64,000 bases of DNA from an uncultured Holophagales bacterium (GTDB taxonomy: Bacteria; Acidobacteriota; Thermoanaerobaculia; Multivoradales; UBA5704). The notes beneath the pieces were generated by a model. The model was not told the origin of the DNA. It saw only the letters and a program-made list of their open reading frames with translations, and did no database searches. The stretch lies in contig CAWJGT010000009.1 of NCBI GenBank assembly GCA_963842525.1, forward strand, positions 1,312,001 to 1,376,000. The letters run 5' to 3'. Both the position numbers and the translations under genes were made by a program. Below are positions 4,819-61,607 of this stretch, piece by piece. Position 1 is the first letter of the stretch; the number at the start of each line of letters is the position of its first letter.

Positions 4819-7800
4819 ATGACGCGCCTTTCCGATGGTCCCCTTGCCGGGGCCTCTTCGCTGGTCGAGGTGCTGCGCCACCGTGCGCTGGCCCAGCCCG
4901 ACCGGCTGGCCTACCGGTTCCTCGCAGACGGCGAGGTGGAGGAAGCCACCTTCACCTATGCCGAGCTGGACCGGAAGGCGCGCGCCATCGCGGCGACGCT
5001 CCAGGATCTGGGTGCCGCGGGGGAGCGCATCCTGCTGCTTTATCCGGCGAGCCTCGACTATGTAGCCGCCTTCTACGGGTGCCTCTATGCGGGCGCTATT
5101 GCCGTGCCTGCCTATCCGCCACGGCCCAACCGGCCGATGCCGCGCATCCGCGCCATCGTGGCGGATGCCCAGGCGCGGATTGCGCTGACGACGCAGGCGG
5201 TCTTTGCCACGATCGAGCGCCGGATCGAGGACCTTCCCGATCTTCAGGCCCTCACCTGGCGGACGACGGACGACCTGCCGGCCGGTCCGGAAGACATGTG
5301 GCGCGATCCCTCCGTCGGGCTGGAGACGCTGGCCTTCCTTCAATATACGTCCGGGTCCACGGCCACGCCCAAGGGGGTGATGGTCAGCCACGGCAATCTG
5401 ATTCACAACGAGCGGCTGATCGAGGTCGCGTGCGAGCACACGGGCGAGACGCCGTGCGTGAGCTGGCTGCCGCTCTACCACGACCTTGGCCTGATCGGGA
5501 ACATGATCCAGTCGCTCTGGGTGGGGACGCCGTGCACGCTGATGTCGCCGGTGTCGTTCCTCCAGAGCCCGATCCGTTGGCTGCGGGCGGTGTCGACCTA
5601 CGGGGGGCATACGAGCGGCGGCCCCAACTTCGCCTATGAGCTGTGCGTGGCCAAGACCACGCCGGAGCAGCGGGAGGGGCTGGATCTGTCGAGCTGGCGA
5701 GTGGCCTTCAATGGCGCCGAGCCGGTCCGCCAGGAGACCCTGGAGAAGTTCGTCAGCGTTTTCGAGCCCTATGGCTTCCGGCGCGAGGCGCTTTTCCCGT
5801 GCTATGGCCTTGCGGAGACCACGCTCATCGTCACCGGCCCTGGCAAGCATGCGCCGCACGTTCACAAGAGCTTCCGCGGCGACGAGCTGTCGCGCAACCG
5901 GGTGGTGGAGGCCGCGGCAGGGGATGAGGCAGCGACGCGCGAGCTGGTGGGCTGCGGTGCGGTGTTGGGTGGGCAGGATGTGCGGATCGTCGATCATGAG
6001 ACGCTTATTGCTTGCGAGACGGGGAGCGTCGGGGAGATCTGGGTGGCGGGACCGAGCGTGGCGCGGGGATATTGGAATCGGACGGAGGAGACGGAGCAGG
6101 CGTTCGGCGCGCGCCCCGGGTTGACACCCGGGGCTACCCAGTCTCGCCCTCCGGGCTCTGGGATCCCTGACTCTGGCGAGCCCGGAGGGCGGCATTCGGT
6201 AGCCCAGGGTGTGAACCCTGGGCGAGGGAGCGAGGACGGCTCCTATCCCTACCTCCGCACCGGCGATCTCGGTTTCTTCCAGGACGACCAGCTCTACATC
6301 ACCGGCCGGCTCAAGGACCTGATCATCCTGCGTGGCGTCAACCACTATCCGCAGGACATCGAGCTGACGGTCGAGCGCAGCCATCCGTCGCTGCGGCCCG
6401 GGTGCGGCGCAGCCTTCTCGGTGGAGGTGGATGGCGAGGAGCGGCTAGCGGTCGTGCAGGAGATCCAGCGCGAGCAGCGCCGGGCCGATTTCGACGAGAT
6501 CGTGGCCGCGGTACGCAAGGCGGTGGCTGCGGAGCACGAGGTGCAGCTCTGGGGCCTGGCGGTCATCAAGCCGGGGAGCCTGCCGAAGACCTCCAGCGGC
6601 AAGATCCAGCGGCGCCAGAGCAAGGCGGATTTCCTGGCGGGTGCTGTGGACTTGGTCGGTGAATGGCGGGAGAGCGGCGCCGGGGCGGCGGATGCAGCCG
6701 ATCTGGAGGTCCCGGACGAGCTGCGTACCCGCGAGGATGTGGAGCGGTGGCTCATCGTGCGGGTCGCGTCGCTCGCCGGAGTCGCGCCCACGGAGATCGC
6801 TCCGGAGCGGGCGATCGGCGACTGGGGGCTCGATTCTCTGAAAGCCATCGAGCTGATGCACAGCATCGAGGAGCGGACCGGGGTGTCGCTCCCCATGGAG
6901 AGCTTCTTCGGCGGCCTGACGCTCGCCGAGGTCATCGACCGGGTGGTGACTGAGCGAATCGCAGCGCCGGCCGAAGGCACTCTCGTGCACGAGGGGGAGG
7001 AGACGGGGGACTTCGCACTCTCGGACGGCCAGAAGGCGCTCTGGTTCCTCTGGCGCCTGGAGCCCGCGAGCCCCGCGTACAACCTGCCGGCCGCGGTGCG
7101 GATCACCAGCCAGGTGGACGCCGAAGCCCTGCGCCGCGCCTTCCAGGCTTTGGTCGACCGGCACCCGGCGCTGCGGACGACCTTTGCGGTGGGGGAGAGT
7201 GGCGACCCGGTCCAGAGGGTCGCGCCGGCGTCCGTGGTCGACTTCGAGGTCGTGGACGCCGCGGGCTGGAGCGAGGAGGATCTGCGCGCCCGGCTGGACG
7301 AGGAGGCGCACCGGTCCTTCGACCTGGAGCAAGGGCCGCTGTTCCGGGTCCGGCTCTATCTCAGGACAGGAGAGCCGGTTTTGCTTCTGAACATGCACCA
7401 CATTATGGGTGACTTCTGGTCGCTCTCGGTGCTGGCCCGCGAGCTGGGAGCCCTTCTTCTTCCCCCCTCTCCCGGGGGAGGGGAGTGCGGATGGGAGAGG
7501 GGGGCCAGGGGGGTGAGGGCTCTCCGCTTCACGGACTATGTCCGCTGGCAGCGCGAGCTGCTGGCCGGGGCCGATGGGGAGCGCCTTCTCGGCTGGTGGC
7601 GGGAGCGGCTGGCCGGCGAGCTGCCGGTGCTCGATCTCTCGACCGACCGACCGCGTCCACCGGTCCAGACCTATCGCGGGTCCGCGGTGCGCTTCCGCAT
7701 CGATCCGGAGCTGACCGCGCGGCTCAAGACGGTGGGACAGAGCCGGCAGGCCACGCTCTACATGACGCTCCTTGCGGCCTTCCAGGCTCTGCTTCACCGG

Positions 7801-59500: not shown

Positions 59501-61607
59501 CACCGGCGCCGGGTGTCGCTGCCGGGCTATCCCTTCGAGCGCCAGCGCTACTGGGTCGAAGGCACCGGATTGTTCGGCCTGGGAGCGGCGCGCAAGCCGG
59601 ACCTCTCGAAGCGGCCCGACACGGCGGACTGGCTCCACGCGCCGGTGTGGAAGCGGATGTTGGCACAACGTCGGAGCCGCATCGATGGAACCCCGGGTGA
59701 TGTAGGGGCGGGGCTTGTCCCCGCCCAGGCGGAGACGGACACGGGGACGAGGGCGGGGACAAGCCCCGCCCCTACATTGGCGCGTTGGCTGGTGTTCCAG
59801 GACGGCTCGGCCTTGGGTGCGGAGCTGGTCGAGGGCCTGCGCGCAGCCGGAGCCGAGGTCACCGCGGTGCGCGAGAGCGACCTCGATCCTGGCTGCCGCG
59901 ACGGATATGTCTCGCTGCTGCGCGCGATGAAGGACGAGGGTGGCCTGCCGTCGTCGATCGTCCACTTGTGGAGCCTGGAATCGAGCGCCAACGGCCACGC
60001 CTTCGAGCACGCGCAGGCGCGCGGACTCCACAGCCTGCTGTTTCTCGCCCAGGCGCTCGGCGAGGTCGGGGCCTCCGCGCCGGTCGGGCTGACCGTGGTC
60101 TCGCGCGGCCTCTTCGACGTCACCGGCGACGAGGCGCTGCGGCCCGAGGCCTCGACCCTGCTCGGCGCCGCGCGGACGATCCCCTGGGAGTACCCGAACG
60201 TGACCTGCCGCGTGGTGGACGTCGTGCTCGCGCCGGGCCTGGCGGGCCGGCTCCTCGCGGAGGTGACGGCTCCTGGCGAGAGCCTGATTGCGCTGCGTGG
60301 CCCGCACCGCTGGATGCAGACCTGGGAGCAGGTCTGCATCGACGCTCAGGATGGCGAGCCGGCGGGGCAGAGACGGCTGCGCGACAAGGGGGTCTACCTG
60401 GTCACCGGCGGCCTCGGCGGCGTGGGCCTGGAGATCGCCGAGCAGCTCTACCGGAGCTGCCAGGCGCGTCTCGTGCTCGTCGGGCGCACGGCCCTGCCGG
60501 ACCGCGAGGCCTGGGCGCGGTTCGCGGCGGGTGACAGCCCGCTGGCGCGCCGCATCCGCCGTATCCGGGCGCTGGAGGCGCGGGGCGCCGAGGTGCTCGT
60601 CCTCGCCGCCGACGTCGCCGACCGCGACGAGATGGCGCGCGCGCTCGACCGGGCGCGCGAACGGTTCGGCACGATCCACGGCGTCGTCCATGCGGCCGGC
60701 GTCAGCGGCGGCGGCCCGATCCAGCGCAAGCGGCTGGAGGACGTCGAAAGGGTGCTCGCGCCGCGCGTCGTCGGCCTCCAGGTGCTCGAAGAGCTGCTCC
60801 AGGGCGAGCCGCTCGACCTCCTGGTCCTGGTGGCGGGCCTGGGCGGCCTCACCGGCGAGCCCGGCCAGGCGGACCTCTGCGCCGCCCACGCCTACTTCGA
60901 CGCCTGGGCGCAGGCGCGCGGCCGGAATGTTTGCAGCGAGTGCGAGAAAACACCGTATACTGTCGCCATTGACTGGGATACATGGCGCGAGGTGGGGATG
61001 GCCGCCTCGGCGGAGCTGCCCGAAGAGCTCCGGCGCCTGCGTGACCAGGCGCTCGCCACCGGCATCGCGCCGGCCGAGGGCAGGGAGGTCTTCGGCCGCA
61101 TCGTGAGCCGGGCGGACCTGCCGCAGATCGTGGTCTCCACCCGGGACCTCGGCGCGGTGATGGAGCACCTGGCCAGCAGGTTCCGCGAAGGGATCCGTGC
61201 AGGGTCCGAGACGTCGGCGGCCACCAAGGCCGCGTACGCCCGTCCCGAGCTGCGCAGCGCCTTCGTCGAGCCGCGCGACGAGACCGAAGAGGCGATTGCA
61301 GCGGTCTGGCGGGAGCTGCTCGGCCTCGACCGGGTGGGCGTGCACGACAACTTCTTCGACCTGGGCGGCCATTCGCTGCTCGCCACCCAGGTCATGACGC
61401 GGGTGCGCGAGACGCTCGGCGTGGAGCTGCCGCTGGATGTCCTGTTCGAACGCGCCGACCGTGGCGGGGCTGGCCGAGGAGGTTGCCCGCCGCAGTGAGA
61501 GGAACGGGGGAGGCGGGCAGCTCGACGAGCTGCTCAAGGAGATCGAGGCGCTGTCCGCCGCCGAGGCCGACGCCGCCTTCCGCCAGGAATCGCAGGGAAC
61601 GACTTGA
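53564..61607 (+). CDS. Hybrid NRPS/PKS C-A-PCP-KS-AT-KR(inactive)-ACP (apparent +1 frameshift near 61450)
   Basis: C HHIVSDG. A FDASVLE, NCYAPTE. PCP GGHSL. KS QTACSTS. AT GHSVG/HAYH. KR GQADLCAAHA. ACP GGHSL. The expected APTVAGLAEE...QLDELLKEIEALS tail lies in the next frame, ending TGA 61605-61607. Confidence 0.92.
59700..59777. repeat. GTAG-type REP doublet, in frame in the post-AT linker
   Basis: Perfect 27-bp inverted repeats ATGTAGGGGCGGGGCTTGTCCCCGCCC / GGGCGGGGACAAGCCCCGCCCCTACAT with a 24-bp spacer. Total 78 bp = 26 codons. Confidence 0.92.

Follow-up and report, generated by a model that had tools for sequence, protein, structure and literature searches.

In-frame palindromic repeats in the megasynthase genes of an uncultured Holophagales bacterium are probably the survivors of genome-wide spread and selection

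How do palindromic repeats come to lie, in frame and without a stop, inside the genes of a biosynthetic assembly line? The question is raised by a 64,000-nt stretch of DNA (the window; contig C9, 1312001–1376000) from an uncultured Holophagales bacterium, in which genes for nonribosomal peptide synthetases (NRPS) and polyketide synthases (PKS), together megasynthases, carry eight such inserts. The assembly of this genome comprises 9.95 Mb in 34 contigs at about 67.5% G+C, with a completeness of 96.4% and a contamination of 3.4%, and the closest named relatives of the first NRPS gene come from metagenome-assembled genomes labelled Thermoanaerobaculia, Holophagales or Acidobacteriota. The inserts are copies of dispersed repeats, and the explanation that we hold to be very likely is that repeats of the repetitive extragenic palindromic (REP) type spread and then passed a selective filter for an intact frame, absence of stops and permissive loops.

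The original prediction, made from the letters of this stretch, had listed eight inserts in the megasynthase open reading frames (ORFs), and all eight are present at the positions claimed. They are stop-free in the host frame and add 19–90 residues each (roughly 18–88 had been estimated). Their described richness in Pro, Gly and Arg is also found, the 323 inserted residues consisting of 21% Gly, 17% Pro and 10% Arg, compared with 9.4%, 6.6% and 9.0% in the host ORFs. The count of about three DNA families has to be revised to four: family A accounts for seven units at five sites, and families B, C and D for one site each.

Three of the inserts lie in the first host gene (ORF 4819–14982). A REPIN-type (inverted REP doublet) palindrome of family B, ~120 nt long with GTAG-tagged arms (6108–6228), adds 39 residues to the FAAL-type adenylation domain, ahead of its YLRTGDLGF motif; its RNA fold has an energy of −91.9 kcal/mol (z −8.1). 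A single family A unit (…GVRA; 7462–7521, forward strand) follows the HHxxxDG motif of the condensation domain. In the AlphaFold2 model of this domain (11-row alignment, mean pLDDT 77.5, pTM 0.77), the insert corresponds to domain residues 151–172, the only nearby stretch with pLDDT <50 spans residues 157–170, and confident helices (136–149 and 174–186) stand on either side, so that the model places the insert as a low-confidence excursion between two helices. The third insert, a REPIN-type palindrome of family C of about 220 nt with 54-nt inverted GTAG-tagged arms (8806–9024), lies in the A2–A3 loop of the adenylation domain and folds with −165.8 kcal/mol (z −11.5, span 8800–9030). It is bordered on the left by a remnant (SPSQPFPMGE; 8783–8805) with peptide similarity to the insert of orthologue L042 in the same loop, and on the right by a second remnant (…GQGGEG; 9025–9051, forward strand, with GGTGAGG at 9040) that is common to L042. 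Because L042 has the same flanking pieces, SPSQP…GE and GQGGEG, the sequence of 8783–9051 is best read as a family C doublet that was probably nested in an older family A-type insert.

Four further inserts belong to family A. In the NRPS region, a single unit (…GGEV; 25224–25279, forward strand) lies 0–1 codon ahead of AYLIYTSGSTG, and an inverted doublet (PHP…GGED; reverse unit 25751–25808, forward unit 25859–25916) follows NLYGPSE in the same adenylation domain, with an RNA fold of −136 kcal/mol (z −9.2, span 25748–25921); both sit in a gene whose frame is broken elsewhere. In ORF 31559–37144, a single unit (…GGEGS; 33465–33518, forward strand) directly precedes AYVIYTSGSTG of the adenylation domain, and an inverted doublet (reverse unit 34826–34886, forward unit 34930–34983) lies in frame at the junction behind a luciferase-like monooxygenase domain that is embedded in this adenylation domain. 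The remaining insert, family D, consists of two perfect 27-nt inverted GTAG-tagged hairpins with a 24-nt spacer (59700–59777) in the AT-KR linker of ORF 53423–61498, and folds with −68.4 kcal/mol (z −11.2). B, C, D and the doublet form of family A fold far better than shuffled sequence (z −8.1 to −11.5), whereas single units of family A show no such excess (z about 0).

All four families recur elsewhere in the genome. Family A has the pattern CCCCTCTCCC…GGGAGAGGGG…GGTGAGG, with a core of TCCCCCCTCTCCCGG, a loop, and then GATGGGAGAGGGGG-CCA-GGGGGTGAGG. Whole-genome nhmmer searches find 804 units of family A at 545 sites, 78 matches of family B at 42 sites, and 52 matches of family C at 27 sites, and the 26-nt hairpin of family D has 15 genome matches at ≤4 mismatches, 7 of them exact. 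The multi-unit sites of family A nearly always hold the same inverted "−+" doublet (242/253), as in REPINs, and families B and C match both strands at every site, indicating that they are self-complementary doublets. GTAG tags can be read in D (TGTAGGGGCGGGGC…), C (CCGTAGGGGTGGCC…, with the complement GCCCCTACGGGGC) and B (CGGTAGCCCAGGG); the B and C arms, at ~55 nt, are longer than the 20–40 nt quoted for REPs. Families B, C and D are GTAG-tagged palindromes of the REP/REPIN type. The pattern CCCTCTCCC-N12-26-GGGAGAGGGG-N2-10-GGTGAGG of family A has 669 exact matches in this genome; it is present in 6/6 same-genus genomes (84–669 matches) and extends to five further genera of the family and to a single genome from a different family, and its reversed form, used as a control, has no match in this genome or in any of the 41 genomes searched.

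The repeats are conserved as DNA and not as peptide, as had been proposed: across the genome, family A uses each of the five frames that lack a stop (GE 44, PH 40, VR 21, S 12 and LT 9 units), and single units in frame are forward in 15 cases and reverse in 14. Within the window, the reading …GVR was rightly given for two forward units, while …GE applies to three units and not to four, since the GE at 9040, the fourth, belongs to the degenerate remnant; both reverse units read PHP. The frame containing TGA is indeed never used, because the host ORFs are open; genome-wide, this also follows from how "in frame" is defined.

The inserts have empty counterparts in relatives. In alignments of orthologues, a check that the original prediction had called for, the inserts at 6112, 7460 and 8806 are absent. 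Specifically, the family B insert is missing from 10/10 homologues of related genomes, in which the alignments break exactly at residues 432/473, and 6/6 closer orthologues (56–74% identity) lack the family B insert, the condensation-domain family A insert and the family C insert. Three relatives (L010, L011 and L042) carry Gly/Pro-rich element-like inserts of their own in the same FAAL, condensation and A2–A3 loops, for example with the peptide …SPWGEGWGEG…. The A2–A3 region and the loop after HHxxxDG do vary in length among homologues, as they would if the Gly/Pro-rich stretches were native variable linkers; but the stretches belong at the DNA level to dispersed families with hundreds of copies outside genes, and empty sites exist in orthologues. 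The empty sites also speak against assembly artefacts, as does the presence of the same elements in independently assembled genomes of the genus. An origin as native linkers or artefacts is therefore scarcely credible.

Is the reading frame of the hosts protected? We delimited the NRPS/PKS DNA of the genome by tblastn with the window's own domains, which yielded 68 blocks of 1,121,750 bp in total, or 11.3% of the genome. Family A occupies 64 sites in this DNA, and 59 of them have same-frame domain homology on both sides and an open frame across, far above the chance level of one third (p = 7e-23); one of the others keeps the frame with a stop, and four join different frames. The frame is kept also at 5/6 family B and 3/5 family C sites in NRPS/PKS DNA. 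The predicted selection for intact frames is therefore upheld. The broader proposal that the assembly line is being remodelled under selection stands for the selection on frame and finds no support for the remodelling, tolerated passengers being the simplest reading.

The same count bears on whether the cluster is decaying, with the inserts as neutral debris in pseudogenes. Decay would account for the single-base frame breaks within 21855–27212 and near 61457, for an adenylation-domain remnant at 23400–23538, and for the within-domain frame breaks of NRPS/PKS DNA across the assembly, at least 101 in number. The breaks in the window lie near 21866, 24803, 25033, 27212 and 61457, none at a long homopolymer, and the last of them cuts the last carrier-domain helix and the C-terminal tail off ORF 53423–61498. 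However, a frame kept at 59 of 64 inserts is unlike debris in dead genes, ~32 kb of megasynthase ORF sequence in the window runs without interruption, and the extra base at 27212 is missing from one independent soil-metagenome contig, apparently of the same organism. Given this missing base and the at least 101 similar breaks, the breaks at 21855–27212 are probably assembly indels, and we regard decay of the cluster as very improbable. The soil metagenome run is the only DNA run listed for 21800–27400, with a small share of its sequence words, and contigs of this run yield short perfect matches to the window over 19000–38000; among the contigs listed, none spans an insert junction, and the differences at 25259 and 25787, together with several apparent joints, are cross-matches between repeat copies. 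The remnant at 23400–23538 (…VRVLDRHGRPVPIGVVGEV…ARWLPDGRLE…) is a different matter. It follows the complete first condensation domain, contains late motifs only, has an internal deletion, and ends in a stop at 23538 with the next ATG at 23541; it is a real structural scar of recombination or deletion in the assembly line.

Across the genome, the repeats are random with respect to neither frame nor gene class, the two properties on which the original prediction had asked for a test. We classified sites with a dicodon model trained on long ORFs, and counted a site as in frame when the 240 nt on either side were confidently coding in one and the same frame and no stop intervened. Family A is in frame in mid-gene at 83 of 545 sites, the other 462 being not confidently mid-gene, while random positions pass the same test in 1291 of 3000 cases with 65-nt spans and in 1156 of 3000 with 180-nt spans. 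Convergent gene pairs enclose family A in 38 cases and divergent pairs in 5, compared with 19 and 12 of 3000 random spans. Families B and C are in frame in genes at 7/42 and 3/27 sites, respectively.

The NRPS/PKS blocks contain almost exactly as many family A sites as an even spread would give them (64 vs 61.4 expected), and hold 49 of the 83 in-frame family A sites, 5 of the 7 in-frame B sites and all three in-frame C sites. Per Mb, confidently mid-gene family A sites number 53.6 in NRPS/PKS DNA and 10.8 in other genes, and the density in the rest of the genome is 78.8; the comparison of genic and gene-cluster densities that had been suggested thus finds family A ~5 times denser in NRPS/PKS than in other genes. 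The REP-type character that had been proposed is right as to dispersed palindromic copies, and the copies are not restricted to genes, most of them lying outside. In the window itself, the intergenic DNA is free of families A–D, as had been noted, and contains other repeat families.

Among the hosts other than NRPS/PKS, for which 8 of 36 stop-to-stop ORFs were scanned with Pfam, four are ORFs of 3285–4469 aa beside or between NRPS/PKS blocks, and a fifth has a condensation domain; the four large ORFs are probably megasynthases too. In-frame hosts among the eight scanned also include genes for an AcrB-type (RND) transporter, a transglycosylase-transpeptidase (class A) penicillin-binding protein, a CHAT-TPR protein, and a D-Ala-D-Ala ligase-GNAT fusion. 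Copies in an RND transporter gene, a class A penicillin-binding-protein-type gene and others contradict a dedicated system aimed at megasynthases, which are favoured hosts and not the target of such a system.

Within the megasynthases, the inserts concentrate in one place. Of 45 adenylation-domain inserts, 35 (27 A, 4 B and 4 C) fall at query positions 105–142, the variable loop just ahead of the YTSGSTG (A3) motif; smaller groups lie near 250, at 295–304 and at 422–440, and a condensation-domain group lies at 138–173, after HHxxxDG. Counted by motif, 34 of 269 A3 motifs have an element ≤130 nt upstream. On a FastTree tree of 264 adenylation domains (of the 269, five had a stop among their first 200 residues and were left out), 29 changes are required to account for the 34 carriers, compared with 32.6 ± 1.2 for shuffled labels, and 6 of 300 shuffles required 29 or fewer; the tree implies at least 29 separate insertion events. 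Among 15 hot-spot doublets, the flanking sequences share a median identity of 0.65, with only 1 of 105 pairs above 0.85. The flank identities and the tree rule out that the hot spot arose by recent duplication of modules. The junction itself, a family A 3′ end ≤60 nt before the A3 coding motif, is found 20 times in this genome, 17, 2, 15, 2 and 7 times in five same-genus genomes, and 6 times in one other-genus genome; there are none in the other 19 genomes searched and none for the reversed control.

A concentration of this kind may also come from targeting, in that the insertion machinery, or hairpin-prone DNA, prefers the DNA just upstream of the A3 motif or palindromes already present there. 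The junctions are stereotyped, GGTGAGG standing 2–9 nt before GCCTAC in many of the 20 matches here and in same-genus genomes; there is one nested case, the family C copy inside the older family A-type remnant; and family B sites lie near family A sites in 8 of 42 cases, compared with 151 of 5000 random spans. On the other hand, the loop is home to three unrelated families, of which two have different transposases, and the distance to the A3 motif varies from about 2 to >30 nt. Among the 8 hot-spot sites of B and C, only 1 lies ≤70 nt from a family A motif, a count taken from nhmmer bounds in which the remnants around the window's family C copy lie inside the bounds and are hence not counted, and family A sites are absent from the 150 nt around every family C site. 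Nesting is accordingly rejected as an explanation of the hot spot. We consider site-directed insertion unlikely, and prefer spread followed by selection as the account of the loop hot spot.

Another possibility is that the inserts have been co-opted, the hairpins pausing ribosomes or marking RNase sites, or the repeats serving as homology patches for swaps of subdomains or modules. The hairpins are very stable. Moreover, in two modules (window 25224 plus 25751–25916; C30:22453 plus 22979) family A brackets the A3–A5 segment, the part of adenylation domains that holds most specificity residues, and among high-identity domain pairs a sharp change of similarity across the loop occurs in 2 of 6 with elements and 3 of 37 without. 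This contrast is not significant, however (p = 0.14), and in the discordant pairs the elements at the junction come from different families. There is free variation in frame and orientation, orthologues manage without the inserts, inserts are found also in unrelated genes, single family A units fold like shuffled sequence, and only 36 of the 89 A, B and C sites in or ≤3 kb from NRPS/PKS blocks lie between domain matches. Pausing, RNase or recombination roles have no support here, and co-option is improbable. Quite improbable, too, is the specific form in which repeats at both edges of the specificity part (pre-A3 and post-A5) drive swapping among ~270 adenylation domains; if true, the diversification of NRPS genes in this lineage would be powered by REP-type selfish DNA.

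What could have moved the repeats? The genome has 20 matches to the Pfam family Y1_Tnp. One Y1 transposase gene (C14:204236–204577) has a full family B palindrome on either side, and another (C32:133626–133973) has family C on either side; a RAYT-like (REP-associated tyrosine transposase-like) gene flanked by the same repeat, for which the original prediction had proposed a search, is thus found for two families. Both genes are single copy, as blastn of the gene body finds only itself. Their products match Pfam PF01797 with 90.6 and 80.5 bits (cut-off 23), pass the NCBIfam IS200 model with 65.9 and 68.4 bits (cut-off 55), have ISHp608 and ISDra2-type TnpA among their PDB sequence matches, and show the HUH motif as DHVHLL and DHVHIL. 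By context, B and C are REPIN-RAYT-like pairs that fall outside the curated RAYT model. One D-type pair lies ~650 nt downstream of the family C-flanked gene. For family A, searches of the neighbourhood of the first 15 of the 20 Y1 matches and for inverted repeats around other Y1 genes revealed no transposase; 126 pairs of family A sites are 0.3–3 kb apart.

Two other Y1 loci were seen in passing. A further palindrome family, with 51-nt arms, lies beside a Y1 gene on C9 near 224.6 kb, which suggests that the genome holds more REP-transposase pairs than the B and C ones. On C34, three Y1 transposase-like matches stand in a row within 3.7 kb (527792–531498), with no flanking palindromes found and with two of the enclosing ORFs 95% identical.

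The elements can be set beside several known systems. REPINs occur with RAYT genes (Bertels and Rainey 2011, PMC3116915), and Di Nocera et al. (2013, PMC3733652) describe in-frame intragenic GTAG and CGTC REPs, including those of Opitutus terrae, and a usual bias of REPs to convergent over divergent gene pairs; they proposed that REPs inside genes may be neutral where they fall in the flexible linkers or loops of a modular protein. Families B, C and D resemble GTAG-REPs and REPINs in being short dispersed GTAG palindromes, often inverted dimers, mostly outside and downstream of genes, and B and C resemble REPIN-RAYT systems in flanking single-copy Y1 transposase genes. As with intragenic REPs, some copies are in frame in loops or linkers of modular proteins. 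Unlike those, the main hosts here are NRPS/PKS genes and not the replication and repair genes stressed in PMC3733652, and several families share one loop hot spot. Unlike RAYTs, the flanked transposases score as IS200-type, below the NCBIfam RAYT model.

Rickettsia palindromic elements (RPEs), as summarized in a 2024 review of miniature inverted-repeat transposable elements (PMC10969869), are ~150 bp long and lie in frame in many unrelated genes, with a conserved peptide. The likeness is one of behaviour only, palindromes being carried in frame by unrelated genes without destroying them; by contrast, no peptide is conserved in family A, whose copies use five frames and both orientations, and the host phylum and gene classes differ. 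The layout of family A resembles the BoxC/TMECO triplex motif, given by Holder et al. (2015, PMC4666352) as CCCTCNCCC-N3-6-GGGNGAGGG-N3-GGGNGAGGG and reported there as always intergenic in E. coli. The block order of family A is CCCTCTCCC, then GGGAGAGGG(G), a short spacer and GGGTGAGG(G), and family A too often forms inverted tandem pairs and is highly abundant. The differences are a first loop of 18–22 nt in 600 of 617 units (3–6 nt published), a G-stem spacer of mostly 5–9 nt (3 nt published), at least 83 sites in frame in genes, and a host of an Acidobacteriota-type lineage and not of the Proteobacteria.

In-frame REPs and RPEs are therefore known already, and no new mechanism is involved here; new are the scale, the measured preference for megasynthases, the filtering for frame, and a hot spot in one loop that is common to three families across the genus. 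No paper on in-frame REP or miniature inverted-repeat insertions in NRPS/PKS genes was found in the literature searched.

Taken step by step, spread and selection would probably work as follows. Families B and C presumably travelled in the form of single-stranded hairpins, each mobilized by a single-copy IS200/IS605-like Y1 (RAYT-like) transposase of its own, and family A is a very abundant hairpin with a G-rich tail, mostly in inverted doublets. Copies would land genome-wide, and selection would remove those that break or disturb genes, so that the surviving genic copies would be in frame, stop-free and in surface loops or interdomain linkers. The megasynthases offer many permissive places, above all the loop ahead of YTSGSTG, and therefore would retain repeats near the genome-average density while other genes stay nearly free of them. 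The Gly/Pro/Arg-rich peptides, made wherever these presumably active genes are expressed, would most likely be neutral or slightly harmful passengers that later decay to ordinary loop sequence.

Several observations weigh against this account. The family C-flanked transposase scores only 19.6 bits with the NCBIfam RAYT model NF047646 (cut-off 80) and the family B-flanked one has no match to it; no family A unit lies within 1.5 kb of a Y1 match among the first 15 of the 20. The hot spot could come partly from targeting, given the many junctions 2–9 nt before the A3 GCCTAC. Among RNA runs, none is listed with 21800–27400, and translation of the inserts is assumed. Furthermore, the dicodon classifier misses about a fifth of true mid-gene sites and put 3 of the window's 5 family A sites in the "one flank" class, and with at least 101 frame breaks in NRPS/PKS DNA, single-base accuracy in the G/C runs of the elements is not guaranteed.

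The gene map of the window, drawn from Pfam domain matches, places the inserts in their assembly line. The first host gene (4819–14982, forward strand) is an intact ORF of 3387 aa encoding a FAAL-ACP-C-A-PCP-KS-AT-KR-ACP hybrid, and is followed by a KS-AT-KR-ACP gene (17140–21858). The host NRPS region (21855–31562, forward strand) is read in four overlapping ORFs, with the breaks near 21866, 24803, 25033 and 27212. Next come an intact host gene (31559–37144, forward strand) for C-A with the embedded luciferase-like monooxygenase, an FkbM-type methyltransferase and PCP, a KS-AT-ACP gene (50119–53571), a host gene for C-A-PCP-KS-AT-KR-ACP (53423–61498, forward strand) that is open up to its single-base frame break near 61457, and a C-A… gene from 61688 onward. 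A second FkbM-type gene (37141–38055) follows the gene with the monooxygenase-split adenylation domain. Inside the cluster, an ORF on the reverse strand (15950–16870) has a weak match to an Rpn-family recombination-promoting nuclease/putative transposase (36.3 bits, below the cut-off of 52.1) and a weak DUF4351 match.

The other repeats of the window differ from families A–D in placement. Directly upstream of the gene start at 4819, a tandem array (4214–4672) holds 7.3 copies of a 63-nt palindromic unit with 93% matches; genome-wide, this family has 73 units at 19 sites, 14 of them non-coding on both sides and 5 with one coding flank, and none is in frame in a gene. A promoter and terminator scan of the array at 4214–4672 gave no promoter- or terminator-like site. 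A second tandem array (45570–45951; 105-nt unit, 3.6 copies, 96% matches, 21-nt sub-period) lies between a divergent kinase-TPR gene and a fatty-acid desaturase gene. At the 3′ end of the desaturase ORF, a dispersed repeat with GTCATCCTGAGCGCAGCGAAGGATC (46884–46941) has ~40 blastn matches elsewhere in the genome, and an NRPS loop peptide of relative L010 (…VLRCAQNDT…) looks like the motif of this repeat read in frame.

The inserts amount to a natural insertion scan, in which ~70 independent, selection-tested insertions of 19–90 residues map the tolerance of adenylation domains, condensation domains and linkers. The clearest tolerant site is the loop ahead of YTSGSTG, which is useful for placing tags, linkers or split sites. 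For annotation, Gly/Pro/Arg-rich "linkers" in the NRPS/PKS proteins of these uncultured soil bacteria can be repeat DNA, and single-base frame breaks in such assemblies should not be taken as gene decay unless reads confirm them. For the organism itself, a genome in which a tenth of the DNA is megasynthase DNA is one in which REP-type elements persist in genes at near their outside density.

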